NCBI GenBank assembly: GCA_017525505.1 | Contig: JAFXSR010000033.1 | Location: 43,531 to 107,530, forward strand | Direction of reading: 5' to 3' | Origin: Bacteroidales bacterium | GTDB taxonomy: Bacteria > Bacteroidota > Bacteroidia > Bacteroidales > WCHB1-69 | Length of the DNA stretch: 64,000 nt | The notes under the pieces: generated by a model | Told to the model about the DNA's origin: nothing | Databases searched by the model: none | What the model saw: only the letters and a program-made list of their open reading frames with translations | Program-made: the position numbers and the translations under genes | Part shown: positions 32,528-61,528 of the stretch, piece by piece | How the letters are laid out: each line of letters opens with the position of its first letter | Position numbering within the stretch: the first letter of the stretch is position 1

Positions 32528-32680
32528 AGTTACACGGTTACGTGGTTACACGGTGAGAAGGTTAAGGGATTTAGAAGGTTTACAAGGTTTAGGAGGTTGA
32601 AGGAGATAAACTTCCTAAACCTCATAAACTACTAACCGTGTAACCGCGTAACCGAGTAAACTTCCAAAGTTCCCCATTGC
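32528..32680. repeat. Long imperfect hairpin built from inverted word arrays (no cargo)
   Basis: The left arm is gagttacacggttacgtggttacacggtgagaaggttaagg...aaggtttaggagg. The right arm is ttcctaaacctcataaactactaaccgtgtaaccgcgtaaccgagtaaac. The ends are complementary: cggttacgYggttacacgg and aggtttagga. Confidence 0.75.
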
Positions 32681-37550: not shown

Positions 37551-37640
37551 AACAGTTGACAGTTAACAGTTGACAGTTAACAGTTGACAATTGACAGTTG
37601 ACAATTGACAGTTGAAAACTGAAAACTGAAAGTTGACAGG
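37551..37640 (+). repeat. Word array (GTTGACAG / TTAACAG / TTGAAAAC / TGAAAG)
   Basis: The sequence is gttgacagttaacagttgacagttaacagttgacaattgacagttgacaattgacagttgaaaactgaaaactgaaagttgacagg. Confidence 0.9.
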
Positions 37641-37660: not shown

Positions 37661-37861
37661 TTCAAAATCCATAATCCATAATCCAAAATCTCTTCTAACC
37701 TTCTCACCCTCTCACCTTCCTAACCCTCCTCACCTTCCTAACCCTCCTCACCTTCCTAACCCTCCTCACCTTCCTCACCTTCCTAACCCTCCTAACCCTC
37801 CTAACCTTTACCCCCTCCTAACCCTCCTAACTTTAACCCCCCCCTACCCCCACCCCCTCCC
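37661..37861 (+). repeat. 201-nt G-free, C-rich word array (CCTYCTMAC units) upstream of wza
   Basis: I read it base by base and found no G between 37661 and 37861. Only one G (37862) occurs before the wza ATG. The units read ccttcctaaccctcctcac... Confidence 0.9.
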
Positions 37862-38804: not shown

Positions 38805-41330
38805 ATGCAAGAAAATCAAAACGCAACAGCGAACAACATTGAACAGCAAGGAGAGCAGGCCATAGACTTGAAGGCGATATTTTACCTTTGCCTTTCCAAT
38901 TGGTACTGGTTTCTGATTTCAGTCATCTTGTGTCTGGCCATAGCCACTTTTTATCTGAAGAAAACCATCCCGGTCTATACCCGTTCAGCCAAAGTGCTGG
39001 TGAAATCCGACAACAAGGGTCACTCAGCCATGAATGTCAGCGATTTCTCGGACCTGGGGCTTTTCAGCAGTGGGGTCAGCATCAACAATGAGCTGCTCAC
39101 CATCCAATCCCTCGACAATGTGGAGGAGGTGGTGCTCCGTTTGCAATTGGATAAAAACTACACTTCCGACGGTCTGCTTCATCCTGTTTTGTTGTACGGA
39201 GAAAATTTGCCCGTCAAGGTGGAGATGCCCGGCATTGACGATCAGGCGGTTCTTTCCTTTGATATTAAACTCCAGGGAACCAAGTTCACCCTTTCCGAAT
39301 TCATGTTGGGTAAGGAAGAGAAAACGGGCTCCGTTACCGCCAAGCTGGGCGATACTGTTGCCACACCGGTGGGTGTTCTTTGTGTGGTTCCCACAGAGTT
39401 TTTCAATCCCAAAAGTCAGTACAAAACCATTCACGTACAGCGTTCCTCTATTGGAAGTACGGCACGAACCTACGTTGGCAAGCTTACGGTGGCGTTGGCG
39501 GCCAAACAGACCGATGTGATGAGCTTGACGGTGAATGACATTTCCAAACAAAGGGCCGACGATTTTATCAATATGCTCATTGCCGTGTATAATGGCAATT
39601 GGCTGAAAGACAAGAACCAGGTAATGGTGAGTACTTCCATGTTTATCAATGACCGTTTGCAGATCATTGAAAAGGAATTGGGCTCGGTGGACGATGACAT
39701 TTCCTCATACAAAAGTGCCAATCTCATGCCCGATGTGGGAGCGGTATCCAGCATCTGGTTGAATCAGAACACGGTTACGACCAACCGAATTCAGGATTTG
39801 AACAACCAGATTGCCATGACCCGCTATGTGCGCAACTATCTGATCAATATGAAGAAGAAAGACCAGCTTCTGCCGGTAAACTCGGGTATTGGCAGTGGAC
39901 AGATCGAAGGTCAGTTAGCGGAATATAACGCCATGATGCTGAAAAGAAACAACCTGGTGGCCCATAGTAGCGAGCAAAGTCCTTTGGTGCTCGAAATGGA
40001 TGACAAGCTGGCCACTATGCGCCAGGCCATCGTTGCCACACTCGACAGCCAGTTGGAAAGCCTCAACACCCTCTTGCAGAGTTTCCAAGGCACTGGACGA
40101 CAAATCAACTCCCGCCTGGCTGCCAGCCCGGGACAGGCCAAGTACTTGTTGTCGGTGGAACGTCAGCAGAAGGTGAAGGAGTCGCTGTATTTGTTCCTCT
40201 TGCAGAAACGTGAGGAAAACGAGTTGTCGCAGGCTTTTACCGCTTACAATACCCGTGTGATTGAGAAACCCAATGGCTCTCCCAATCCTACCAAGCCCAA
40301 AAAGTCTCTCATCCGTTTGGTTGCTGTCATCCTGGGTTTGGCTATTCCGGGCTTTATCCTCTTTATGATCGATTACCTGAACACCACCGTGCGTAGCCGC
40401 AAGGATTTGGAGAAACTGAGTGTGCCGCTCGTTGGCGAGATTCCGTTGGTCTATAATCCGGAGGATGCCAAGAAAAACAGAAAGAAGAAAAAAGAGATAC
40501 GGCATAATGGACAGAGCAATCCTGAGGGTTTCGCCAAGACCGTGGTGGTGAAACATGGCAGCCGTAATGTCATTAACGAGGCTTTCCGTGTGTTCCGTAC
40601 CAATCTGGAGTTCATGACCAAGAACAAGGAGAACAATGTCTTTATGTTCACCTCCTTCAATCCGGGTTCCGGTAAGTCTTTTATCGCCATCAACTCGGCC
40701 ATCAGCTTGGCCATCAAAAAGCGCAAAGTGCTGGTTATCGACGGTGACTTGCGCCATGCCTCCCTGTCCGCCTACATTTTCTCCCCAAAGAAGGGTATCG
40801 CCAATTATTTGGGTCGCCAGGAGGAGGATGTTCATAAATTGATTATCCAGAGTGATGATTATCCTTGTCTGAGCTACCTGCCCGTGGGTACCATTCCGCC
40901 TAACCCCACTGAGTTGCTAGAGGATGAGCGTTTCGGTGAGTTAATCAAAATATTGAAGCAGGAGTATGACTATGTGATGATTGACTGTCCGCCTATCGAC
41001 ATTGTGGCCGACCCGCAGATTATCAACAAGTATGTAGATCGTACCGTCTTCGTGGTGCGTGCCGGTTTGATGGAGCGCAGCCTTATTCCCGAACTGGAGA
41101 AATTATACACGCAGCACAAATATGTCAACTTGTGCATGTTGCTCAACGGCACTACCAGCTCCGATGGCCGCTATGGCTACCGTTACGGTTACCGCTATGG
41201 CTATCGTTATGGTTACCGCTATGGCTACAAGTACGGCTATGGCTATCACAATGCCTACGGCAAGCACAGCGCCTACGGTGGGTATTATCATGAGGATGAT
41301 GAGACGGAGGAGGGGGGAAGTGGAAAGTAG
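38805..41330 (+). CDS. wzc: Polysaccharide co-polymerase / tyrosine autokinase (Wzc-like)
   Basis: It has a Wzz-type N-terminal TM helix and periplasmic coiled coil. The Walker A is TSFNPGSGKSFIAINSA and the Walker B is VMIDCPP. The C-terminal Tyr cluster is GRYGYRYGYRYGYRYGYRYGYKYGYGYHNAYGKHSAYGGYY. Confidence 0.9.
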   Translation: MQENQNATANNIEQQGEQAIDLKAIFYLCLSNWYWFLISVILCLAIATFYLKKTIPVYTRSAKVLVKSDNKGHSAMNVSDFSDLGLFSSGVSINNELLTIQSLDNVEEVVLRLQLDKNYTSDGLLHPVLLYGENLPVKVEMPGIDDQAVLSFDIKLQGTKFTLSEFMLGKEEKTGSVTAKLGDTVATPVGVLCVVPTEFFNPKSQYKTIHVQRSSIGSTARTYVGKLTVALAAKQTDVMSLTVNDISKQRADDFINMLIAVYNGNWLKDKNQVMVSTSMFINDRLQIIEKELGSVDDDISSYKSANLMPDVGAVSSIWLNQNTVTTNRIQDLNNQIAMTRYVRNYLINMKKKDQLLPVNSGIGSGQIEGQLAEYNAMMLKRNNLVAHSSEQSPLVLEMDDKLATMRQAIVATLDSQLESLNTLLQSFQGTGRQINSRLAASPGQAKYLLSVERQQKVKESLYLFLLQKREENELSQAFTAYNTRVIEKPNGSPNPTKPKKSLIRLVAVILGLAIPGFILFMIDYLNTTVRSRKDLEKLSVPLVGEIPLVYNPEDAKKNRKKKKEIRHNGQSNPEGFAKTVVVKHGSRNVINEAFRVFRTNLEFMTKNKENNVFMFTSFNPGSGKSFIAINSAISLAIKKRKVLVIDGDLRHASLSAYIFSPKKGIANYLGRQEEDVHKLIIQSDDYPCLSYLPVGTIPPNPTELLEDERFGELIKILKQEYDYVMIDCPPIDIVADPQIINKYVDRTVFVVRAGLMERSLIPELEKLYTQHKYVNLCMLLNGTTSSDGRYGYRYGYRYGYRYGYRYGYKYGYGYHNAYGKHSAYGGYYHEDDETEEGGSGK

Positions 41331-41383
41331 ATAGTAGAAAGTATAAAGTATAAAGTAGATAGTAGAAAGTAGAAAGTAGATGG
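41328..41383 (+). repeat. 7-nt word array AGTAKAW x8
   Basis: The array agtagat agtagaa agtataa agtataa agtagat agtagaa agtagaa agtagat begins within the wzc stop codon. Confidence 0.9.
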
Positions 41384-41771: not shown

Positions 41772-41825
41772 ATACCAAAATGTAATAAACCAAACTATAA
41801 ACGAAATAAAACAAAAAAAATTATA

Positions 41826-41893
41826 AACCATAAACAAAAAAATCTATAAACCATAAACTATAAACTATATACTATATACTATATACTTTACAA
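41826..41893 (+). repeat. 7-nt word array (CCATAAA / CTATAAA / CTATATA), approximate complement of 41328-41383
   Basis: The sequence is aaccataaacaaaaaaatctataaaccataaactataaactatatactatatactatatactttacaac. Confidence 0.8.
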
Positions 41894-41894
41894 C

Positions 41895-42572
41895 ATGTTA
41901 TTCTCCAAACCAATCAACACCTACCTCAAAGGCTTCACCGACCATCACTCCCATATATTGCCCGGAGTGGATGATGGAGTGAAGAAGATGGAGGTATCCC
42001 TGCAGGTGCTGGAAAAGTACGAGCAGTTGGGTATCGCTGAGGTGTGGTGTACCCCGCATACCATGGAAGATATTCCCAATACTACGGAAGGTCTCAAAAG
42101 CCGTTTTGCGGAGCTGTGCGAGGCCTACAAGGGTCCCATCAAGCTGCATCTGGCTTCTGAATATATGATGGACGGCCTTTTCGAGGAACGTCTGGAAGAG
42201 GGTAATCTGCTGACTTTGGGCGAGGAGGGCAACCAGCTTTTGGTGGAGACCTCTTATTTCACTCCGCCCATCGATATGGACACTATCTTGCGCCGCATCC
42301 GTCAGAAGGGTTATTTCCCAGTGCTGGCTCATCCCGAGCGTTATATATACATGGATAAAGAACAGTATCATGAACTCAAGGACGAGGGTATCCGTTTTCA
42401 GCTCAACCTATCTTCCATTGCCGGTGCTTACGGTCCCGATGTCAAAGCCAAGGCCCTCTGGCTCCTCAAGAAACAATACTACGACCTTGCCGGCTCCGAT
42501 CTCCACTCGCTGAGAAACGTTTCCTTCTGGGAGGCACGAGCTCCGCGGGCCCTGAGGAAGTTTTTGGGATAG
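41895..42572 (+). CDS. PHP-family protein-tyrosine phosphatase (CpsB/YwqE-like)
   Basis: The N-terminal metal motif is DHHSHILPGVDDG, with LAHPERY later. It sits next to the Wzc-like kinase. Confidence 0.85.
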   Translation: MLFSKPINTYLKGFTDHHSHILPGVDDGVKKMEVSLQVLEKYEQLGIAEVWCTPHTMEDIPNTTEGLKSRFAELCEAYKGPIKLHLASEYMMDGLFEERLEEGNLLTLGEEGNQLLVETSYFTPPIDMDTILRRIRQKGYFPVLAHPERYIYMDKEQYHELKDEGIRFQLNLSSIAGAYGPDVKAKALWLLKKQYYDLAGSDLHSLRNVSFWEARAPRALRKFLG

Positions 42573-42632
42573 AAGGATAGAAGGTTAGAAAGGTTAGAAA
42601 GGTTAGGAGGGTTAGGAGGGTTAGGAGGGTTA
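42573..42632 (+). repeat. 8-9-nt word array GGWTAGRAR x8 (part of a 98 nt C-free tract, 42553-42650)
   Basis: The array ggatagaa ggatagaa ggttagaaa ggttagaaa ggttaggag x4 begins at the phosphatase stop. It supplies the last codons of the antisense gene. Confidence 0.9.
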
Positions 42633-43004
42633 GGAGGGTAAAGTGTTTAGCTTTTTTTTGAAAGATGCTCTTAATCCTATTAGCATTTTAGATACATATT
42701 CGAATTCAGGCTTCATTTTGTTTACATTACTGATCGAGATATAATTCAAATCAACAGCTATTAGTAATTGACAATAGCATTCCATTAAAGAACCATAAGC
42801 AATTTCTATAAAGTGGATTTTTTCTTTAACTGATGTTCTACCACTTCCTTCTGCAATATTTGATGGAACAGAAACTATTGACCTTCTGATTTGATCGCAT
42901 AACGCATACCGTTCTATAGACGGAAATTCTTTTAAGGTATCATACACTGAAACAACAAGCTTTTTGGATACTTGCCAAACTTCTAAACTTTCAAACGAGA
43001 ACAT
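42630..43004 (-). CDS. Four-helix-bundle protein (23S rRNA intervening-sequence / Avd family), second copy
   Basis: The family signature is FESLEVWQVSKKLVVSVYDTLKEFPSIERYALCDQIRRSIVSVPSNIAEGSGRTSVKEKIHFIEIAYGSLMEC. Its own TATTTTTG box is at 43040-43047 (minus). Confidence 0.85.
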   Translation of the reverse strand: MFSFESLEVWQVSKKLVVSVYDTLKEFPSIERYALCDQIRRSIVSVPSNIAEGSGRTSVKEKIHFIEIAYGSLMECYCQLLIAVDLNYISISNVNKMKPEFEYVSKMLIGLRASFKKKLNTLPS

Positions 43005-43047: not shown

Positions 43048-43065
43048 CAAAAAAATAAAAATAAC

Positions 43066-43212
43066 CCTCCTAACCCTCCTAACCTTTCTAACCTTCCTAA
43101 CCTTCCTAACCCTCCTAACCCTCCTAACCCTCCTAACCTTCCTAACCTTCCTAACCTTCCTAACCCTCCTAACCCTCCTAACCCTCCTAACCTTCCTAAC
43201 CCTCCTAACCCA
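43066..43212 (+). repeat. 9-nt word array CCTYCTAAC x about 17, inside a 204-nt G-free tract (43040-43243)
   Basis: The units read ccctcctaaccctcctaacctttctaaccttcctaacc.... It is the reverse complement of the arrays at 42573-42632, 44607-44730 and 45825-45912. There is no G until the ugd ATG. Confidence 0.9.
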
Positions 43213-43241: not shown

Positions 43242-44609
43242 ATGAAAATCTCCGTCGCAGGTACCGGCTATGTGGGTATGAGCATCGCCACTCTACTCGC
43301 TCAACATAATGAAGTAACCGCTGTGGACGTGGTTCCAGAGCGTGTTGACATGGTGAACCATAAAAAGTCTCCTATCCAGGATGACTATATTGAAGACTTT
43401 TTGGCCCACAAACCCTTGACTATCAGTGCTACCCTTGACCAGGAGGCGGGCTACCGCGAGGCCGACTTTGTGGTCATTGCGGCCCCTACCAATTACGACC
43501 CCCAGAAGAATTTCTTCGACACCTCGGCAGTAGAGGCGGTCATTGATGCCGTGCTGAAGGTGAACCCCGATGCGGTTATGGTCATCAAGAGCACCATTCC
43601 GGTGGGATATACCCGTTCGCTGTATGTCAAATATTACAGGCAAGGGGCTAAGAAATTCAACCTGTTGTTCAGCCCCGAGTTCCTGCGCGAGAGCAAGGCC
43701 CTGTACGATAACCTTTATCCCTCTCGTATCATTGTGGGTACCCCGAAAATGATGAAGGGCAAGGACTATGAGGAGGAAAACGAAGCTATCAAGGCACTCA
43801 CCGATATCGACTGGATCAGCCAGAAAGCCCATCAGTTTGCCGGTCTTCTTGTGGAAGGCGCCATCGGCCCCTCTCCAGACACCTGCTCACCCTCTAACCC
43901 TCTCACGCCCTCTCAACCCAACAAAGGCATTTCCGTCCTCTTCATGGGCATGAAGGAAGCCGAGGCGGTGAAGCTTTTCGCCAACACTTACCTGGCTCTC
44001 CGTGTAAGCTATTTTAATGAGTTAGATACCTATGCCGAGGTAAAAGGTCTTGACCCTCAGTCTATTATAGAAGGGGTTGGGCTCGATCCCCGTATTGGTT
44101 CGCATTACAACAACCCCAGTTTCGGTTATGGCGGCTACTGTTTGCCCAAGGATACCAAGCAGCTGCTGGCCAACTATGCCGATGTGCCTCAGAACATGAT
44201 GAGCGCCATCGTGGAAAGCAACAGAACCCGCAAGGACTTTATTGCCGACCAAGTGCTCAAGATGGCAGGTTATTACGCTTATAGCGAGAATAATCAATTC
44301 AAAAATCAGGGTTCAGAATTCAAAGTTCCCACCATTGGTGTCTTTAGATTGACGATGAAATCTAACAGCGACAATTTCCGTCAGTCGGCCATCCAGGGCA
44401 TCATGAAGCGCATCAAGGCCAAGGGGGCCAACGTTATCATCTACGAGCCCACTTTGGAGAACGGTACCATGTTTTTTGGCAGCCTTATTATCAACGACCT
44501 TGTCCAGTTCAAAACCCAGAGCCAGGCTATCATCGCCAACCGTTACGATGCCTGCCTGGATGATGTGAAAGAGAAGGTTTATACGAGGGATATTTTCAAA
44601 AGGGATTAG
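43242..44609 (+). CDS. ugd: UDP-glucose 6-dehydrogenase
   Basis: The Rossmann N-terminus is [21 protein letters not shown]. The catalytic Cys context is [18 protein letters not shown], with [28 protein letters not shown] nearby. Confidence 0.9.
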
Positions 44610-44730
44610 GTTAGAGAGGTTAGGAAGGTTAGGAAGGTTAGAGGGTGAGAAGGTGAGAAGGTTAGAAAGGTTAGGAAGGTTAGAAAGGTTAGGAAGGTTA
44701 GGAAGGTTAGGAAGGTTAGAAGAGATTATG
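44607..44730 (+). repeat. Word array GGTTAGRAR / GGTGAGAA (part of a 154 nt C-free tract, 44598-44751)
   Basis: ggttagagaggttaggaaggttaggaaggttagagggtgagaaggtgagaaggttagaaagg... begins at the ugd stop codon. Confidence 0.9.
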
Positions 44731-44740
44731 GTTTATATTT

Positions 44741-44920
44741 GCGTCACTACCCCGGCCTTCGGCCACCCGTTGGAGGCTACGCCTCCTTTCTCCTCCTCGC
44801 TCGGGAAAGCTCAATCAAGCTTGGCTTTCCTCTCGCTCCTTCGTCGAATCTAAAAGAAGGGGAATTAACTTTCAGTTTTCAGTTTTCAACTGTCAACTGT
44901 CAATTATCAACTATCAACTA
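44741..44920 (-). repeat. Family-A composite element, copy 2 (inverted), including its word leader
   Basis: tttgcgtcactaccccggccttcggccacccgttggaggctacgcctcc...ctcctcgctc...ctctcgctccttcgtcgaatc...aattaactttcagttttcagttttcaactgtcaac is the reverse complement of the copy-1 pattern. Confidence 0.75.
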
Positions 44921-45813: not shown

Positions 45814-45955
45814 GCGGTGAGGCCTGAGGTTAGGAGGGTTAGGAGGGTTAGGAGGGTTAGGAAGGTTAGGAAGGTTAGGAAGGTTAGGAAGGTTAGGAAG
45901 GTTAGGAGGTTACACGGTTAGAAGGTTAGAAGGTGAAAGGGGTTTAGGAGGTTTA
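45814..45955 (+). repeat. Word array (GTGAGCG, GGTTAGGAR x12, GGTTAGAA, GGTTTAGGA)
   Basis: The words start inside the last rfbA codons (agtgagcggtgagcggtgagg). A C-free stretch spans 45825-45912. Confidence 0.9.
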
Positions 45956-45990
45956 GATGGCAAGTGCTTCCTCAAGGATGTGAATGCTAC
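45956..45990 (+). pseudogene. Orphan 35-bp fragment of a nucleotide-sugar dehydrogenase gene (DGKCFLKDVNA)
   Basis: gatggcaagtgcttcctcaaggatgtgaatgct matches ggtggcaaatgcttccctaaggatgtgaacgct at 47846-47878 at 28 of 33 positions. The differences are mostly at third codon positions. Confidence 0.6.
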
Positions 45991-46007
45991 TAATATATAA
46001 TATTAGA

Positions 46008-47675
46008 ATGAAAGGTATACAAAATACTATTACAGGAAATTTTAGCTCAATTATCAGCAATAGCCGGCGTTTTGTTGTCCCGAAATTCCAAAGAGACTAT
46101 TCGTGGAGTAGTGAGCAGTGGGATGATCTGTGGCAAGATATTGAGACGATGATAGAGGAGCATGATGAACATTACATGGGTTATCTTGTTCTTCAGACTC
46201 AAGACGATAAGCTTTTTTACATAATAGATGGACAGCAGCGCTTTACTACGGTATTGATTCTTATTTATGCTGCAATAAAGTGCGTGCAGAGACAGATTGC
46301 CCAGGGTGTGGATGTTGAGGACAATAGGCGTCGATGCGAATCTTTGAAGAATTTGTACATAGGGAAAGAGGATCCTGTAACATTAGACTATGACAACCTC
46401 TTAACTTTGAACAGGAATAATAACGCTTATTTCTGTGACTATATCTTGAAATTGGGTGATTTGAAGGCACGAAATCTTACAGCAACAGAAAAACTGATGC
46501 GTAGCTGCTTTGAGTATTATGAGCAAAGGCTTATTGGCAAGTTCAATAGTGGAAAAGAGTATGCTTCTTTCATCCAGACAGTTGCAGATGGTTTGCATTT
46601 TACGCAAATCGTGGTCAATGATGAGATGAATGCATTCCGTGTATTTGAGACTCTGAATGCACGTGGCGTTCAATTGTCATCTGCAGACTTGTTAAAGAAT
46701 TATTTGTTCTCTAAAGTTGATAGCGAAACCACTCATAGTAGCCGTATAGATACGTTAGAGCGCAAATGGAGCAAGCTCACCGATAATATTAAGGCCGAGA
46801 AGCTTCCAGAGTTTCTTCGCTATTATTGGAATATGCAGCACAAAACAATTCGTGCCAATGCCGTATATAAAACTATTCGTCAGGAGATTAAGGAAGATAA
46901 GCAAGTGTTCCTTTTGTTGGATGACCTCATCTCTTATAGTGATATTTATATGGCATTGACTGATGAGAATGATGAAATGTGGACAGATTCGGAGGTTAAG
47001 GATAATGTGGCTCTGCTTAATCTTTTCCGCCTGAAACAGCCTTTCTCATTGCTTATGGCTGCCAAGAAGAGTTTGACGGACAATGAGTTCAAACGGGTGC
47101 TGAAGACTGTTATCATGGTGTGTTTTCGCTATAATGTAATCTGCGATAGAAATCCCAATGACCAAGAAACTCCATTTAATGCGCTTGCTCAATCTATAAG
47201 CCATAATAATCTTGTTGATTTGAAGGAGCTTTCATCGATCATGGTGGATGATGCTGAGTTCAAGAGTGCATTTAAAGAAAAGACTTTCCCTTATAACTCG
47301 CGTAATGCCAAAGTTATGAGGTACATATTGGGAAAGATAGAGCATTTCAAAGGCTCTGCCCAGGCAGTTCGTTTTGATGATGAGAACGCATCTATAGAAC
47401 ATGTTTATCCCCAGAATCCTTCTGAAGAGTGGGATTTGGACGAATCTAAGATGCAACGTTTTGTTTTTCGACTTGGAAACATCTGCCTTTTGGAAAAAGG
47501 ATTGAATAGGGATTTGCAAAATGCAAGTTTCGCAGAAAAGGTTTCAGTTTATAAAAAGTCATCATTTTATTATGCTCAAAAAATATCATCAGAATATAAT
47601 GAATGGAATGATAGCGCTATAATAAAGCTTCAGACCGAGATGGCAAACGCTGCTGTATCTATTTGGCGAGTATAA
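46008..47675 (+). CDS. DUF262 + DUF1524 protein (GmrSD-like type IV restriction / nucleotide-targeting defence enzyme)
   Basis: The N-terminal DUF262 motifs are FVVPKFQRDYSWSSEQWDDLWQDI and IIDGQQRFTT. The C-terminal His-Me/DUF1524-like motifs are IEHVYPQNP...GNICLLEKGLNRDLQNASFAEK. The start is moved to MKGIQNT. Confidence 0.8.
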   Translation: MKGIQNTITGNFSSIISNSRRFVVPKFQRDYSWSSEQWDDLWQDIETMIEEHDEHYMGYLVLQTQDDKLFYIIDGQQRFTTVLILIYAAIKCVQRQIAQGVDVEDNRRRCESLKNLYIGKEDPVTLDYDNLLTLNRNNNAYFCDYILKLGDLKARNLTATEKLMRSCFEYYEQRLIGKFNSGKEYASFIQTVADGLHFTQIVVNDEMNAFRVFETLNARGVQLSSADLLKNYLFSKVDSETTHSSRIDTLERKWSKLTDNIKAEKLPEFLRYYWNMQHKTIRANAVYKTIRQEIKEDKQVFLLLDDLISYSDIYMALTDENDEMWTDSEVKDNVALLNLFRLKQPFSLLMAAKKSLTDNEFKRVLKTVIMVCFRYNVICDRNPNDQETPFNALAQSISHNNLVDLKELSSIMVDDAEFKSAFKEKTFPYNSRNAKVMRYILGKIEHFKGSAQAVRFDDENASIEHVYPQNPSEEWDLDESKMQRFVFRLGNICLLEKGLNRDLQNASFAEKVSVYKKSSFYYAQKISSEYNEWNDSAIIKLQTEMANAAVSIWRV

Positions 47676-47691
47676 TTGAATAAAGATAATT

Positions 47692-47974
47692 ATGATCAAC
47701 GTCGGAATCATCGGCTGCGGCTTCGTGGGTGGAGCCCTCAAGGAGTGGTTGGAACACAACAATCCTGAATGCAAGCTTTTCATCAGCGACCCCGCCAAGG
47801 GCTACACACACCCATGTTCCGGGTCCCGACGGCAAGTACGGTTATGGTGGCAAATGCTTCCCTAAGGATGTGAACGCTTTCGCCAAGATGACGGAAGGCA
47901 CATCCCTTGGAACTCTTCTGGAACACCTCCACGAGCTTAATGTCCATTTCCGTGGGGAGGAAGAGCATATCTGA
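47692..47974 (+). pseudogene. Remnant of a nucleotide-sugar dehydrogenase gene (internal deletion plus frameshift)
   Basis: Frame 1 reads MINVGIIGCGFVGGALKEWLEHNNPECKLFISDPAKGY, a Rossmann N-terminus, and then becomes junk. Frame 2 from about 47815 reads VPGPDGKYGYGGKCFPKDVNAFAK..., the catalytic-Cys motif. Hundreds of codons are missing between the two. Confidence 0.75.
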
Positions 47975-48017: not shown

Positions 48018-48446
48018 ATGGGTGTTTACGAAGAACAAATAGTGCCAATCAAGATTTCGCGCTTGGCAGAATATGTGTCCAGGAGGAAGCATATTGCTCT
48101 GGAGGATGCCCTTGTGTACATATATTCCAATCCTATGTACGACCGGTTATATGACGAAGGGGCCAAGTGGTGGTATCTTAGTACTGAAGCGCTTTATGAT
48201 GAGTTTGAGACGGCACGCAATACCGAAAGTAAGAGCGTAACGCATGAGGAATTTGAGTTCTACACTTATTGTTTGGAAAAATATGCTTTGTCAAAAGGTC
48301 TTACAGGTCTTCAAACTCTTGCACTACTGAAGCGTTACGGTGCAGATGATTATCTGATTGACCATTATGGTCTTCTTCATACACAAGGCACCGATTATGT
48401 AATTGATGAGTTAGATCGCTATATTCAGAGGAGGAAAAGAGGATGA
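48018..48446 (+). CDS. DUF3791-domain protein (candidate partner/antitoxin)
   Basis: The C-terminal half EFYTYCLEKYALSKGLTGLQTLALLKRYGADDYLIDHYGLLHTQGTDYVIDELDRYI matches my memory of the DUF3791 consensus. Its stop overlaps the next start (ATGA). Confidence 0.7.
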   Translation: MGVYEEQIVPIKISRLAEYVSRRKHIALEDALVYIYSNPMYDRLYDEGAKWWYLSTEALYDEFETARNTESKSVTHEEFEFYTYCLEKYALSKGLTGLQTLALLKRYGADDYLIDHYGLLHTQGTDYVIDELDRYIQRRKRG

Positions 48447-48826
48447 TAGTGTATCACGGTTCAAATGTTAGGGTTCGCAAGCCCAGTTTGCGTATGAGCA
48501 GGAAGAAGACCGATTTTGGACGCGGCTTTTATACAACAACCCAGAAGGAGCAGGCCGAGCACTGGACCTCCATCAAGATAGATAGGGCAAAAACAGGCCG
48601 CAGAGTCGTGTCGGTTTTTGAGATTGACGACGAACTTCTAACTAATCCTGAACTGAAAATTCGCGAGTTTCATGGCCCTGATGAGGACTGGTTGAATTTC
48701 GTGGTTGACAGTCGTAAAGGTGTGGAGCACGACTACGATCTTGTGTTTGGACCCGTAGCCAATGACAAAGTGTTCACCGTGGTGAACCTTTATGAAAGCG
48801 GTGTTCTAGTATTTTGTAACATCTAA
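48443..48826 (+). CDS. DUF3990-domain protein, possible ADP-ribosyltransferase-fold enzyme; 3' end altered by IS insertion
   Basis: MIVYHGSNVRVRKPSL...TDFGRGFYTTTQKEQAEHW has an HGS...G.G.Y pattern. The present C-terminus ...ESGVLVFCNI* reads into the IS630 inverted repeat. Confidence 0.7.
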   Translation: MIVYHGSNVRVRKPSLRMSRKKTDFGRGFYTTTQKEQAEHWTSIKIDRAKTGRRVVSVFEIDDELLTNPELKIREFHGPDEDWLNFVVDSRKGVEHDYDLVFGPVANDKVFTVVNLYESGVLVFCNI

Positions 48827-48852
48827 AACTTTAATAATTGAAATATTTTTTG

Positions 48853-48860
48853 TATCTTTG
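48853..48860 (+). promoter_or_regulatory. TAnnTTTG promoter box inside IS630 left end
   Basis: TATCTTTG lies 27 nt upstream of the transposase ATG at 48887. Confidence 0.55.
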
Positions 48861-48886
48861 CCGCCGGATATTCAAAGACAGGCATT

Positions 48887-49372
48887 ATGGCAGAGTACAG
48901 AAAATTAAGAATCAAGCTGTCCGAAGAACAGCGCAAATCGTTTGAACAAATTGTCCGCAAAGGCGTTTCAGGGGCAATGGAGATACGCCGTGCCAACGTG
49001 CTGTTGCTCGCCGACGAGGCCGGTGACAGGAAACGCCAGAAGGACGTTGTAATAGCAGGCATGCTCCAAATCACGCCGCAGGCGGTCCACGACATCAAGC
49101 TCAAGTTTCTGGAGAGGAAGGACACCGTCCCCGACGAGCCGAGCTGCGGTATACGCAGGAAGAAGAGGGAGACCCCTCCTGTCCAGCCGAAATGCACGGG
49201 TGATGTGGAAGCGAAAATAACAGCCATCGCCTGCAGCTCCCCTCCCGAAGGTCGTAGCCGCTGGAACCTGCGGCTCATCGCCGACAAGGCTGTCGAATTG
49301 GAGATTGTGGACTCAATTTCACACACACAGGTCGGCCGTATTCTAAAAAAAACCAATATAAGCCTCACTTGA
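48887..49372 (+). CDS. IS630 transposase, N-terminal HTH part (orfA)
   Basis: Helix-turn-helix-like segments read EEQRKSFEQIVRKG...RRANVLLLADEAG and RWNLRLIADKAVE. It ends just after the A8 run. Confidence 0.8.
   Translation: MAEYRKLRIKLSEEQRKSFEQIVRKGVSGAMEIRRANVLLLADEAGDRKRQKDVVIAGMLQITPQAVHDIKLKFLERKDTVPDEPSCGIRRKKRETPPVQPKCTGDVEAKITAIACSSPPEGRSRWNLRLIADKAVELEIVDSISHTQVGRILKKTNISLT
49345..49352 (+). promoter_or_regulatory. A8 slippery run: candidate -1 frameshift (or transcriptional slippage) site fusing orfA and orfB
   Basis: In cta aaa aaa acc, reading one base back gives cta aaa aaa aac caa tat aag cct cac ttg aag aag aca tgg. That translates as LKKNQYKPHLKKTWCIPP, which joins the two ORFs without a stop. 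Confidence 0.55.
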
Positions 49373-50058
49373 AGAAGACATGGTGCATACCTCCCCAGCA
49401 GAATGCCGCTTTCGTGGCAAACATGGAAGATGTGCTGGAAGTCTATGCAAGGCCGTATGACCCTCTCGCCCCTGTGGTTTGCATGGACGAACAACCCATC
49501 GAGCTGCATTATGACAGCAGGGAGACCATTCACTTGTCGGAGAGCAACCATACTGAAAAGGTTGACCACGAATACACAAGGAACGGGACATGCTGCGGCT
49601 TCATGTTCACCGAGCCTCTTGGAGGCTGGAGAAGAGTGACCATTCTGGAACATCGCTGCAAGACAGACTGGGCGCAGCAGATAAAACGCCTTGTCGACGA
49701 AGACTTCCCTGACGCTGAAAAAATAGTTCTGGTGTGTGACAACCTGAACACGCACAACATATCGTCGCTGTATGAAACCTTTGAACCGGCAGAGGCGAGA
49801 CGCATCTGGGAGCGTCTCGAAATGCATCACACCCCGAAACATGGCTCGTGGCTTGACATGGCAGAGACTGAACTTTCCGTGTTTACACGGGAATGCTTGC
49901 GCAGAAGAATCGGAGACATGGAGGTCCTGAAAGCCGAGGCAGAAGCATGGTGCGTTGACCGTAATGCACGGCAGAAAGGCATTGACTGGCATTTTACCAC
50001 GGGAGATGCGAGAATCAAACTCAAACATTTGTATCCTGTTATAAAACTAAAAGATTAG
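49369..50058 (+). CDS. IS630 transposase, DDE catalytic part (orfB)
   Basis: KKTWCIPPQQNAAFVANMEDVLEVY...VCMDEQP...LVCDNLNTH...HHTPKHGSWLDMAE is a DD(E) triad of the Tc1/IS630 type. It has no ATG of its own; the track start is TTG. Confidence 0.85.
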   Translation: MKKTWCIPPQQNAAFVANMEDVLEVYARPYDPLAPVVCMDEQPIELHYDSRETIHLSESNHTEKVDHEYTRNGTCCGFMFTEPLGGWRRVTILEHRCKTDWAQQIKRLVDEDFPDAEKIVLVCDNLNTHNISSLYETFEPAEARRIWERLEMHHTPKHGSWLDMAETELSVFTRECLRRRIGDMEVLKAEAEAWCVDRNARQKGIDWHFTTGDARIKLKHLYPVIKLKD

Positions 50059-50145
50059 ATGTTACAGTGTACTAGTATGGTTTTGAAAAGTGAACAGTGT
50101 CTACAAAAAATAGAAAAATAATGTTCGTGGAATGAAAATTATTAT

Positions 50146-50159: not shown

Positions 50160-50258
50160 TGTTATGCCATACAGCGCAGGCATGTAAAATTACCAGCGAC
50201 AACGATTTTGGTAATTTCAATCGCTTTAACCCACATCTTTTTTTTGATGTGGGTTTTT
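50160..50258 (+). ncRNA. Candidate small RNA (about 100 nt) defined by promoter box, internal hairpins and an intrinsic terminator
   Basis: The hairpins are atgcc...ggcat (about 50164-50184) and aaattacca-13 nt-tggtaattt (50187-50217). The terminator is aacccacatc-t8-gatgtgggtt plus ttt (50228-50258). The longest ATG ORF after the predicted TSS is 7 codons. Confidence 0.3.
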
Positions 50259-50570
50259 GGATAAATCAAAAGCAGTTAATATCCATTGTTTGTCCAGTCC
50301 AAATGCTTTGCGTTCAATAATTACTCTAAAATAATTTGATTCCAGTAAATATTCTTCACCAGTTTTAGTTATCGATAATTCACCAAATTGCACAACTATC
50401 GGGATAAAATCCTCAATTTCAAATCCTAAAGCTTTAATGCTGTTCCCATGCTTCTCATAAATGTGTTTTAACCCAAATCCCTTGTTGGTTTCGGGTTCAT
50501 TTTCTCCCCACACGATGTCAATATAGCCAATATCCTCCTTGCGATGACCTGCTATAACTGACGCAACAAG
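50226..50570 (-). pseudogene. 5'-truncated gene remnant (conserved KGFGLKHIYEKHG motif; possibly nuclease/toxin-like)
   Basis: The frame stays open upstream of the track's GTG start (..LVASVIAGHRKEDIGYIDIVWGENEPETNKGFGLKHIYEKHG..). No start codon occurs before an in-frame TGA, which abuts the terminator of the upstream gene. Confidence 0.4.
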
Positions 50571-59308: not shown

Positions 59309-61528
59309 CTATTTTTTCACCACTTTATGATAAGAGTTTTTTCCGTCAGTTATCAGTTTCAATATATATACTGAAGGACTTAAAGAATTGATATTGAGCT
59401 GGTATAAGCGACCTATAAACTTGGTTTCCAATATTTTGCGACCGGTAAGGTCAAAAACCTGCACTTGGGTAATGTCATCGTTCGTCGTTTCGATGTGGAG
59501 GATGTCGGTGGCGGGATTGGGGTAACATTTGGCAGTTGTGCTTTCCGTTTCGTTAATGCTGACGGGAATGCCGGTTCTGCCTTCAAAGTAGGCGAATCCG
59601 CCGGCATAGTTGCCCACGATGAGGTCGGGATAATTGTCGTTGTTCAGTTCTCCTACGGCAACTCCCACCCGGATGCCTTCTTGTATGGGCAGATGTTGAG
59701 TTCCAGTTTGTTCAGGCAGCCATGTGGTTTGCAGGGAGAAACTTCCGCTGAGGTTGTTGTCTATATTGTTGTAAAGGAACAGTTTGCCCTGCTCGTTGCC
59801 GCAAAGCAGCAGGGTTTCGTTGTTTTGTCTGAAAAAGCAGGGAGTGGCAAAGCCGAAATAGGAGAGGGTATAATCACGTACATCAACGTTGCCCAGGTTG
59901 CTGGTCTCCAATTGAAAACTACTGTTTTCATTGGTGGAAATGTTTCTGTAATAGGATATTTGCCCACGGCGGTTGCCGATAAGCAGATCTATTTTGCCGT
60001 CCCGGTCGAGGTCGAACAGTTGGGGAGTGGCAAAATCGCCGGCCTCAATATTCAGGAAATTCTCCGTTATCTGTCCGTTTTTTGCCTTTATGAGAGAGCC
60101 ATCACTGCATCCGCATATCATTTCTGTTTGTCCGTCACCGTCCAGGTCCCCGAAAGTGGGGAAGAGGGCTTGTTTGTTGAGTTGGCGCAGGTTGCCGAAA
60201 TCGGGATTCATCAGTCGAAAGGCGGGTTGAGAAGCTGTGCCGATATTCTCGAAGTAGGCAATGGAGGAGGAGTAATACGAGGTGAGGAAGCCGTTGTAAT
60301 AGGCGGAACTGTCGTAGTAGCCGTAGTTTCCGGCGAACAAATCCAGCAGTCCGTCACCGTTCCAGTCGTAGAGCACGGGGTAACAGCCGGAGCCTAAGTT
60401 CACCATTTGCTCTTGCAAAAATTTCTGTGTAACCAGACTGTAATTTTGCAACAGACTGTCGTATTCGTACAGCCATACACTGTTGACATTCTGTGATTTA
60501 TTCAAAGAAGGGTCGGCGGGGGAAACCAGTAGTTCCGGGATGTTGTCTCCATTTAAATCCGTTGAAGAGACCAGCGGCATGGAGTATAAGGAGATGGGGT
60601 TGACGGCATTGGGGACGGCGGAAGTTTGCGCCACCATCAGGGCTTCGGACAAGAAGCCCCCGTTGGTCAGAAGCACGACCTGTGCATAGTCAATATCGCC
60701 CAAAATAAGATCTTCCAAGCCGTCGTGGTTGAAGTCGGTCATGGTCATGGTGGAGCCGACATGGCGGTTAGGTTCTTCATTCTTGCTTTGGCAATAGCTC
60801 AGCAAGGTAATCTCGTTGTTGTCGGCCCCTTCGGAAAACTTTCCCCAGCACTCGTCCTCCAGTCGGAAGTCCAGCCAGCCGTTGGCAAGGTTGTTTTCTA
60901 GGGCATAATTTCGTTGATAATGAACGTATTTTCCTAATACCCAAAAGTTTAGTATATCCATATCGCCATCATGGTCCACATCGGCAACCACCAGGTTGTC
61001 ATCGGGCGAGGCGTAGATATTGCTGTAACTGGTATAGTAAAAGGAGGTAAGTTGGTCGGTTACCAAGCTGAATGAAAGCTGTTCCTGCGAGCTGTTTCTG
61101 AAGACTCTGATTCCCGCGAGACCGTATGTAAAAATGTCTTTTTTACCGTCGTTGTCATAGTCTTTCAGGATAAGCCAGTCGTGCAGTCCGGGGAAGCAAT
61201 GCCGGTATTCGGGGGCATATAGCCATTGCTGGCCATGCCGCAAAAAGGGAAGCAGACGGTTGCCGTGCTTTTCAAAGGCCAGCAGGTCATCGGTGCCGTC
61301 GAGGTCAAGGTCGATGTTGAAAAACGCAAGGTTGCTCATGCCTCCCGCCCAAGCCAGGGACAGGGTGTCATTGCCCGTTAGCACGAGGATGCTCTGGTTT
61401 CGTTGAAAAGCAGGAATGTATGTGGTTTGGGCTGAAAGTTGAAAACTGAAAGTTGAAAACTGAAAGTTGAAAATTACAAGCAGGAGTATTCTTAGTGATA
61501 ACTTCCGAAAAAACATTCTTTTTTTCAA
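59309..61528 (-). CDS. FG-GAP/VCBS-repeat protein with T9SS type-A C-terminal sorting domain
   Basis: There are multiple D.D.DG..D[LI] calcium-loop repeats (DLDLDGTDDLL, DVDHDGDMDIL, DFNHDGLEDLIL, DLDGDGQTEMI, DLDRDGKIDLLI). The C-terminus is CYPNPATDILHIE...VFDLTGRKI...SVYILKLITDGKNSYHKVVKK. Confidence 0.85.
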   Translation of the reverse strand: MKKRMFFRKLSLRILLLVIFNFQFSTFSFQLSAQTTYIPAFQRNQSILVLTGNDTLSLAWAGGMSNLAFFNIDLDLDGTDDLLAFEKHGNRLLPFLRHGQQWLYAPEYRHCFPGLHDWLILKDYDNDGKKDIFTYGLAGIRVFRNSSQEQLSFSLVTDQLTSFYYTSYSNIYASPDDNLVVADVDHDGDMDILNFWVLGKYVHYQRNYALENNLANGWLDFRLEDECWGKFSEGADNNEITLLSYCQSKNEEPNRHVGSTMTMTDFNHDGLEDLILGDIDYAQVVLLTNGGFLSEALMVAQTSAVPNAVNPISLYSMPLVSSTDLNGDNIPELLVSPADPSLNKSQNVNSVWLYEYDSLLQNYSLVTQKFLQEQMVNLGSGCYPVLYDWNGDGLLDLFAGNYGYYDSSAYYNGFLTSYYSSSIAYFENIGTASQPAFRLMNPDFGNLRQLNKQALFPTFGDLDGDGQTEMICGCSDGSLIKAKNGQITENFLNIEAGDFATPQLFDLDRDGKIDLLIGNRRGQISYYRNISTNENSSFQLETSNLGNVDVRDYTLSYFGFATPCFFRQNNETLLLCGNEQGKLFLYNNIDNNLSGSFSLQTTWLPEQTGTQHLPIQEGIRVGVAVGELNNDNYPDLIVGNYAGGFAYFEGRTGIPVSINETESTTAKCYPNPATDILHIETTNDDITQVQVFDLTGRKILETKFIGRLYQLNINSLSPSVYILKLITDGKNSYHKVVKK
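61431..61475. repeat. Word array (TGAAAGT TGAAAAC) inside the signal-peptide coding region
   Basis: gctgaaagttgaaaactgaaagttgaaaactgaaagttgaaaatt encodes, on the minus strand, ...VIFNFQFSTFSFQLSAQ. Confidence 0.9.

Follow-up and report, generated by a model that had tools for sequence, protein, structure and literature searches.

Proteins with the DUF3990 domain are already catalogued, both as members of the ADP-ribosyltransferase (ART) clan of Pfam (PMC7955679) and as the large component of PDC-M13, a cassette that PADLOC derived from embedding within known defence systems (bioRxiv 10.1101/2024.01.29.577857). In rumen genomes PDC-M13 is one of the candidate defence systems detected most often (3324 calls in 6530 genomes; PMC13356809), and DUF3990 has also been described as a variable toxin domain at the C-terminus of type VI secretion system Rhs proteins from Serratia and Enterobacter (PMC4524185, PMC10763514). 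Where the literature mentions the family, its function is called unknown. Because of the Pfam clan listing the ART fold of DUF3990 is not a discovery, and because of the PDC-M13 listing the idea of a role in defence is not new either. Here we describe a member of the family in 64,000 nucleotides of a Bacteroidales bacterium (GenBank assembly GCA_017525505.1, contig JAFXSR010000033.1, positions 43,531 to 107,530 of the forward strand), a stretch that is called the window below and to which all coordinates refer. The DUF3990 gene stands behind a DUF3791 gene and is cut short by an insertion sequence (IS), and the window copy is a defunct member of the family. It is likely that the locus is an IS630-disrupted two-gene DUF3791-DUF3990 module of the PDC-M13 type from a rumen genome of Prevotella/Bacteroidales, the intact form of which would act as a toxin-antitoxin (TA)-like or abortive-infection system with an NAD-using effector.

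All component families of PDC-M13 are present and adjacent at this locus. The intact ortholog of the DUF3990 protein matches the model of the large component (E 4.5e-55), and the two halves of the DUF3791 protein match models of the small proteins. The window form differs from the catalogued cassette in having two genes, with the two small components fused into the upstream 142-residue protein and the effector truncated. The module resembles type II TA systems in its small, co-directional and overlapping genes that always stand together; no known antitoxin or DNA-binding fold, as is expected of a type II antitoxin, was found in DUF3791. DarTG is an anti-phage two-gene TA system of an ART toxin and a macrodomain antitoxin, and is similar in placing an ART-fold toxin in a two-gene defence module. 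However, the gene order is reversed, the antitoxin DarG is a macrodomain with enzyme activity and DUF3791 a small helical protein, and no sequence or best-hit structural relationship between DarTG and the DUF3990 pair was found.

Gene pair and its disruption

The pair and the element that interrupts it consist of the following features.

48018..48446, forward strand: DUF3791 gene (open reading frame 1, ORF1), intact, 142 residues; two all-helical modules of ~70 residues fused, N module ~1-71 and C module ~72-142 (Pfam, PADLOC, AlphaFold2)
48443..48446, forward strand: ATGA stop/start overlap of 4 nt between the DUF3791 and DUF3990 genes; the same overlap in 52 of 84 related loci
48443..48808, forward strand: remnant of the DUF3990 (ART-fold) gene, codons 1-122 of 161, with H5-G6-S7 and D24-F25-G26-R27-G28-F29-Y30-T31-T32 (Pfam, identity to the database protein P0001)
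48809..48826, forward strand: IS-derived tail of the truncated ORF2, VFCNI and stop; junction GGTGTTCTAGTATTTTGTAACATCTAA against GGTGTTCTAGATGCC in the intact allele
48809..50072, forward strand: IS630-family insertion sequence with inverted repeats, CTAG/TA at both ends and an HTH_32 and DDE_3 transposase
48887-49372, forward strand: transposase ORF 1 of the IS (Pfam HTH_32, E 6.5e-10)
49369-50058, forward strand: transposase ORF 2 of the IS (Pfam DDE_3, E 1e-18)

An earlier note on this DNA, made from the sequence alone, had described a translationally coupled DUF3791-DUF3990 pair with a 4-nt ATGA overlap and had pointed to an HGS ... DFGRGFYTT pattern in the second protein, and all of this was recovered. 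ORF1 matches DUF3791 in Pfam (E 1.4e-18, residues 80-139). ORF2 (48443-48826, forward strand, 127 residues as encoded) begins with MIVYHGSNVRV...TDFGRGFYTT and matches DUF3990 (PF13151) above the gathering threshold (E 5.2e-39, 133.8 bits against a cut-off of 32.2), with ART-PolyVal as a second, sub-threshold match (E 0.0076). However, while the reading frame and the motifs of the second ORF are real, the gene is not full-length, and its truncation had been overlooked: ORF2 covers positions 1-121 only of the 152 in the DUF3990 profile, and the domain is therefore incomplete.

The intact form of the gene is known from the closest database protein (P0001), which is 161 residues long, is 100% identical to ORF2 over residues 1-122 and covers the profile from position 1 to 152 (158.8 bits). 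The six contigs that carry it (L001-L006) are 98-99% identical to the window at the nucleotide level and the alignment breaks off at 48809, where ...GGTGTTCTAGATGCCCCA (G V L D A P) in the intact allele stands against ...GGTGTTCTAGTATTTTGTAACATCTAA (G V L V F C N I stop) in the window. The insertion point is the CTAG after codon 122 of DUF3990, so that ORF2 is without 39 of the 161 residues, or the 3' 117 nt of the gene, and has five IS-derived residues instead. The element at 48809-50072 belongs to the IS630 family, as it encodes a DDE_3 domain and an N-terminal helix-turn-helix (HTH), has inverted repeats and used a TA (CTAG) target, CTAG being the classical target of IS630. Its terminal inverted repeats are 28 nt long and imperfect (79% complementary, within 48806-48833 and 50048-50075), and it is present in one copy in the window. 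CTAG is found at both ends of the IS and in the intact target site; the two flanks of the IS are not contiguous. No trace of the 39 missing C-terminal residues was found anywhere in the 64-kb window, including the sequence right of the IS, which indicates a deletion either together with the insertion or after it. Among the related loci, none was found in which the DUF3990 3' end is linked to the DNA on the right of the IS. The two transposase ORFs overlap by 4 nt and the DDE_3 ORF has a TTG start; the split transposase may be a frameshifted or a two-ORF form.

The truncated allele is no accident of assembly, since 16 contigs of several assemblies encode exactly the same 127-residue protein, and one of these (L141) comes from another dataset and is 99.9% identical to the window over both IS junctions. 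An exact search of JGI metagenome contigs for the left IS junction gave no match, and the allele was recovered by the exact-protein look-up. The intact allele was found on 11 contigs from the same sample series as the truncated one. In the database the truncated protein is entered as MBR4536140.1 ('DUF3990 domain-containing protein', from a Bacteroidales metagenome-assembled genome).

Mapped on the model of the intact ortholog, the truncation takes away a helix (124-132) and both C-terminal strands of the core (138-142, with Q139, and 151-158), and because of the loss of these strands the window copy is not expected to be an active toxin. By this mapping the truncated protein would be unable to form a complete ART domain and thus inactive, and the copy is almost certainly dead. 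The earlier note implied, as a hypothesis, that the 127-residue protein itself works as an NAD-dependent toxin under the control of DUF3791, and this we regard as very improbable. The N-terminal HGS and DFGRGFYTT motifs are intact, the conserved ATGA coupling precedes the ORF and the allele persists in several metagenomes, but two of the six main sheet strands and Q139 are among the residues gone, the part that is missing has been replaced by IS-derived residues, and all but one of the 84 other assessable orthologs are 159-173 residues long. MBR4536140.1 is a pseudogene fragment made by the IS, and what is left at the locus would be a toxin stump and an orphan partner gene.

Directly 5' of the DUF3990 ATG, at 48425-48445, there is a strong Shine-Dalgarno-like sequence, AGGAGGAAAAGAGG, which lies within the Arg/Lys-rich conserved C-terminus of DUF3791 (QRRKRG). 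In Bacteroidota, Shine-Dalgarno-led initiation is generally absent, and such a sequence ahead of DUF3990 is hence unusual.

Fold and conserved residues of intact DUF3990

Relatives of DUF3990 were collected with an exhaustive HMMER search (3264 cluster representatives at E <= 0.001), residue conservation was read from 113 diverse full-length relatives with 32-60% identity, and the intact ortholog of 161 residues was modelled with AlphaFold2 (pLDDT 96, pTM 0.88). The model has strands at 2-7, 29-32, 55-61, 73-75, 100-104, 138-142 and 151-158. In Foldseek searches of the PDB the top match was the Xre-RES toxin of P. putida (9r35, E 5.7e-5, probability 1.0), and further matches were ParT (6d0i, E 6.4e-2), about 25 tankyrase/PARP chains, PARP14, Arr and Tpt1. 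Among the viral models of BFVD a direct DUF3990 homolog came first, followed by ART-PolyVal domains and one PARP domain. Weak matches to ART-PolyVal in Pfam were obtained for 43 of the 113 relatives (best E 1.7e-4, below the Pfam threshold). No related PDB entry was found by sequence, whether the query was a single DUF3990 protein or the profile of 113 sequences, and NCBIfam and PHROGs hold no model for DUF3990 or DUF3791. The earlier note had suspected an ART/PARP-type fold and had named structure prediction among the ways to check it. Run on the intact ortholog, this check did find an ART fold, and the model together with the RES, ParT and PARP matches confirms intact DUF3990 as a small stand-alone protein with a predicted ART fold (split beta-sheet).

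The near-invariant residues among the relatives are H5, G6, D24, F25, G26, G28, F29, Y30, T32, Q37, A38, F76, W83, R91, D99, G103, A106, D108 and Q139 (of the 113 sequences, 109 have H5, 110 G6, 113 Y30 and 111 Q139). H5 is on strand 2-7 and Y30 on strand 29-32, so that these two positions of the NAD pocket are filled, and both residues are also found in the window ORF. The H5-G6-S7 of strand 1 and the G-x-G-F-Y30 of strand 2 correspond to the HGS and GKGIYFA of PARP. An hhalign comparison placed Y30 on PARP1 Y896 and DFGRGFYTT on MFGKGIYFA, but the match is weak (E 0.041) and serves as a lead only. In ARTs of the H-Y-E class (PARP/diphtheria-toxin type) the catalytic Glu opens the penultimate core strand. 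By strand order and topology only, this canonical position is Q139 in DUF3990. The assignment to the H-Y-E class made in the earlier note is therefore borne out in its first two elements, the HGS and GxGFY on the first two strands, and not supported in the third. The acidic residue that had been offered as candidate in VVSVFEIDDE (E60) is off the canonical position by strand order and only moderately conserved (73 Glu and 16 Asp among the 113), and with Q139 at the canonical position an H-Y-E triad is not shown. On the model, the candidates for a third catalytic residue would be Q139, D99, D108 and E60.

The nearest solved structures are those of the RES-Xre and ParST systems (9r35 and 6d0i, TM ~0.45-0.5), which similarly combine a small ART toxin and a small partner in a two-gene operon. 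In contrast to them, DUF3990 is without the R-E-S signature and has PARP-like motifs, its partner is not an Xre/HTH protein, and the identity is ~12%. PARPs and tankyrases share with DUF3990 the HGS and GxGxY on the first two strands with similar spacing, but DUF3990 has Gln139 at the position of the Glu and no regulatory or helical subdomains, and the comparison has little statistical support (E 0.04 to 1). Outside DUF3990, the family closest in sequence is ART-PolyVal (PF18760, viral structural match E 4.7e-5), a domain of very large multi-domain proteins, whereas DUF3990 stands alone in 161 residues and has a dedicated partner.

Since the best structural match is the RES toxin of P. putida and a Gln takes the canonical place of the catalytic Glu, DUF3990 could be an NAD+-degrading enzyme (glycohydrolase or phosphorylase) like RES/MbcT that kills by NAD+ depletion. 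The missing RES-type signature and the PARP-like H-G-S and G-x-G-F-Y motifs speak against this, as do the next-best relatives (ParT, ART-PolyVal and the PARPs), which are transferases, and we consider an enzyme of this kind unlikely, if by no means far-fetched. Secretion of DUF3990 as a polymorphic toxin, with DUF3791 as the immunity protein, would fit the use of the domain at the C-terminus of type VI Rhs toxins (PMC4524185, PMC10763514). However, the protein starts at ART strand 1 (MIVYHGS) and no N-terminal delivery, PAAR, Rhs or signal region is present, DUF3791 is upstream and not downstream, and the immunity gene of Serratia Rhs5 has been described as an unrelated small ORF (PMC4524185), which together leave very little room for a secreted toxin here.

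The DUF3791 partner

The DUF3791 protein of the window is identical to the partner of the intact allele in 139 of 142 positions. The PDC-M13 models of PADLOC match its two halves separately (residues 8-66, E 5e-15; residues 77-140, E 1.3e-18). The AlphaFold2 model consists of helices only, arranged as two sets of five, but it was built on a shallow alignment (67-91% identity) and is for this reason less secure than that of DUF3990 (pLDDT 88.5, pTM 0.56). Although the halves have the same helix pattern, each matches a different small protein of PDC-M13. An internal duplication is not claimed, as an hhalign comparison of the N half with the C half was not significant (E 0.088). A sequence search of the PDB with DUF3791 found no match. 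DUF3791 is a putative neutraliser or regulator of DUF3990.

Distribution and gene neighbourhood

The pair was compared across 86 related loci (80 from genomes and 6 from metagenomes, mostly Bacteroidales) with a DUF3990 44-100% identical to the query. In 84 of these, DUF3990 is directly preceded on the same strand by a DUF3791 gene for ~142 residues, and the two exceptions are at contig edges, so that the arrangement is not due to chance. Of the 84 paired loci, 52 show an overlap of precisely 4 nt. The coupling of the two genes into one module, as the earlier note had claimed, is thus well borne out. A conserved third gene beside the pair was looked for in these loci and none was found.

In more distant relatives on viral contigs (26-41% identity) the partner is split. 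There, 34 of 50 loci have a three-gene form, ordered either as a C-like small protein, DUF3990 and an N-like one, or as DUF3990, N-like and C-like, and these orders match the PDC-M13 cassettes FAM_00109>>FAM_00403>>FAM_00080 and their cyclic permutation. From these gene orders, the 142-residue DUF3791 protein of Bacteroidales is a fusion of two partners that are separate in distant relatives, which argues for the two acting jointly. Longer DUF3990 homologs (187-221 residues) were seen on large viral contigs, some over 200 kb (L107, L113-L117, L124-L126 and L134-L138), and no DUF3791 neighbour was detected beside them. These may use another partner, as in PDC-M10 of PADLOC.

Disruption of the pair has been one-sided. 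In L031 (6001-6544) DUF3990 is frameshifted near residue 129, and in L098 (4009-4485) it has an in-frame stop at codon 97, with DUF3791 intact in both. Together with the window this makes three independent disruptions of DUF3990 with an intact partner each time, and no locus with an intact DUF3990 and a broken DUF3791 was found among the related loci. The asymmetry fits the logic of toxin and antitoxin, in small numbers.

The pair is also carried by mobile elements, with 90 plasmid records (29 typed as conjugative and 10 as mobilizable) and 7 phage records. On pMMCAT, a plasmid of ~98 kb common to many Bacteroidales species, it is next to HipBA, an IS4 and a pair of phosphoribosyltransferase (PRTase) and SLOG-family genes. 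In two loci of the pMMCAT type (L087 and L088) the PRTase-SLOG pair is ~2.5-3.8 kb upstream and HipBA also flanks, and PRTase-SLOG, HipBA and DUF3791-DUF3990 form a small accessory conflict region. The plasmid records, the HipBA and IS4 beside the pair on pMMCAT and the variable chromosomal contexts could mean that the main function of the intact module is addiction to a plasmid or mobile element by post-segregational killing, and not defence against phage. Most copies found, however, are chromosomal and beside capsule loci, and the PADLOC cassette was derived from embedding in known defence systems; the two roles are not mutually exclusive, either. Addiction as the chief function is, in our view, somewhat unlikely, but deserves to be kept in mind.

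Among 140 non-redundant flanking genes the commonest are those of polysaccharide biosynthesis (Polysacc_synt_2 7, UDPG dehydrogenase 5, RfbA 3), with a minority of defence-type ABC ATPases, Panacea antitoxins and PD-(D/E)XK nucleases. The context in other genomes is a mixed one, with the plasmid and phage copies and the IS4 and HipBA neighbours on pMMCAT on one side, and defence genes as only a minority of the flanking genes on the other. The pair also follows rfbA and a UDPG-dehydrogenase remnant in the window, and it might be argued that it is a non-toxic accessory of capsule or polysaccharide loci, for example a regulatory NAD-dependent modifier, and no conflict system at all. Capsule loci are, however, known hot spots of variation in Bacteroidales, no single neighbour is conserved, and the pair is also present on plasmids and phage or prophage contigs without capsule genes. 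The use of the DUF3990 domain as the tip of Rhs toxins (PMC4524185) is a further objection, and a role of this kind is quite doubtful.

Proposed function

In the TA-like or abortive-infection system that we favour, intact DUF3990 would bind NAD+ and either ADP-ribosylate a cellular macromolecule or degrade NAD+, resulting in growth arrest. The co-translated DUF3791 protein would restrain it through direct binding, and phage infection or loss of the element would release the effector. The window copy would be a neutralised relic of such a system, with its DUF3791 gene orphaned and the toxin gene reduced to a stump.

More tentatively, and with less than even confidence, we propose that intact PDC-M13 represents a widespread class of ART-based abortive-infection or addiction systems with a non-canonical H-Y-Q site and a bipartite helical partner of a new fold. 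Such a site may favour a nucleic-acid or phosphate acceptor, or NAD+ cleavage, rather than modification of Glu or Asp in proteins, and the partner would be two small proteins in Firmicutes and phage forms and fused in Bacteroidales.

Several points count against an NAD-using effector restrained by DUF3791. The third catalytic position is a Gln, neither Glu nor Asp, and transferase chemistry is therefore not assured. DUF3791 has no known antitoxin or DNA-binding fold (best Foldseek match in the PDB E 1.3), and without similarity to a known fold its role as neutraliser rests only on gene order and linkage. On viral contigs, 16 DUF3990 homologs are without a DUF3791 partner, the neighbours of the pair outside the window are mostly polysaccharide-biosynthesis and not defence genes, and the asymmetry of decay is based on three cases only. 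Finally, PDC-M13 is one of 145 untested phage-defence candidates of PADLOC (Payne et al. 2024, bioRxiv 10.1101/2024.01.29.577857), and we found no published activity assay of DUF3990 in the literature.

Other features of the window

The pair is at the end of a capsule locus with genes for UpxY-like NusG, Wza, Wzc, CpsB, UDP-glucose dehydrogenase and RfbA. The neighbouring features are these.

45984..47675, forward strand: GmrSD-type (BrxU/HEC-06-like) type IV restriction gene, upstream of the pair (GmrSD_N E 2.4e-37, GmrSD_C E 2.8e-28, PADLOC HEC-06 E 4.2e-203)
47692..47974, forward strand: UDP-glucose dehydrogenase remnant, frameshifted and internally deleted (ORFs 47692-47865 and 47729-47974; UDPG_MGDP_dh E 1.5e-4, weak)
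50226..50513, reverse strand: PBECR1 nuclease-domain ORF of 95 residues, right of the IS (Pfam PBECR1 E 1e-9, profile 14-102 of 104)
37695-37831, 42572-42639, 43062-43211, 44608-44721, 45827-45934, and also 32570-32598: arrays of a 9-bp unit
37552-37615, 41318-41380, 41818-41887, 44886-44920, 61432-61473: arrays of 7-bp units

For the window itself, the defence and mobile islet of the earlier note is a fair description, with GmrSD/HEC-06 upstream and the IS and the PBECR1 remnant downstream. A 39-nt imperfect direct repeat (82%; 45950-45988 and 47840-47878) stands on both sides of the GmrSD gene; it encodes the GGxCxxKD motif of UDP-glucose dehydrogenase, and its downstream copy is inside the dehydrogenase remnant. 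These dehydrogenase-derived repeats suggest that the cassette entered by recombination within that gene. The related strains of L001 and L002 have no GmrSD gene and carry an AAA_15 ATPase and a gene for 226 residues upstream of rfbA instead. In the PBECR1 ORF (a phage Barnase/EndoU/RelE-like nuclease) the profile match lacks its first ~13 positions, there is no normal start codon and a stop is found just upstream; the ORF is probably what remains of the C-terminal part of a larger gene, and no plasmid relatives of it were found. The intergenic gaps of the capsule locus hold tandem arrays of the 9-bp unit AGGTTAGGA or its complement, with up to ~17 copies, and of several 7-bp units. In L001 a comparable array is 3' of the intact DUF3990 gene.

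Significance

As an annotation message for the window, MBR4536140.1 has to be left out of any tally of functional defence or toxin genes. What the analysis adds to the databases is the H-Y-Q arrangement by topology, the relation between the split and fused partners, the asymmetry of decay, and a pseudogene made by an IS that circulates beside the intact allele. It also supplies a confident model of the ART fold and a shortlist of residues (H5, Y30, Y/F59, Q139, D99 and D108). With the model, the shortlist, the evidence for fusion and a natural IS-knockout allele at hand, PDC-M13 should be easy to test. The cassette is also carried by pMMCAT-type plasmids of many gut Bacteroidales species, and in case the H-Y-Q reading is true, the allele killed by the IS, which shares its rumen populations with the intact one, would offer a natural loss-of-function variant with which to study the costs and benefits of the system.

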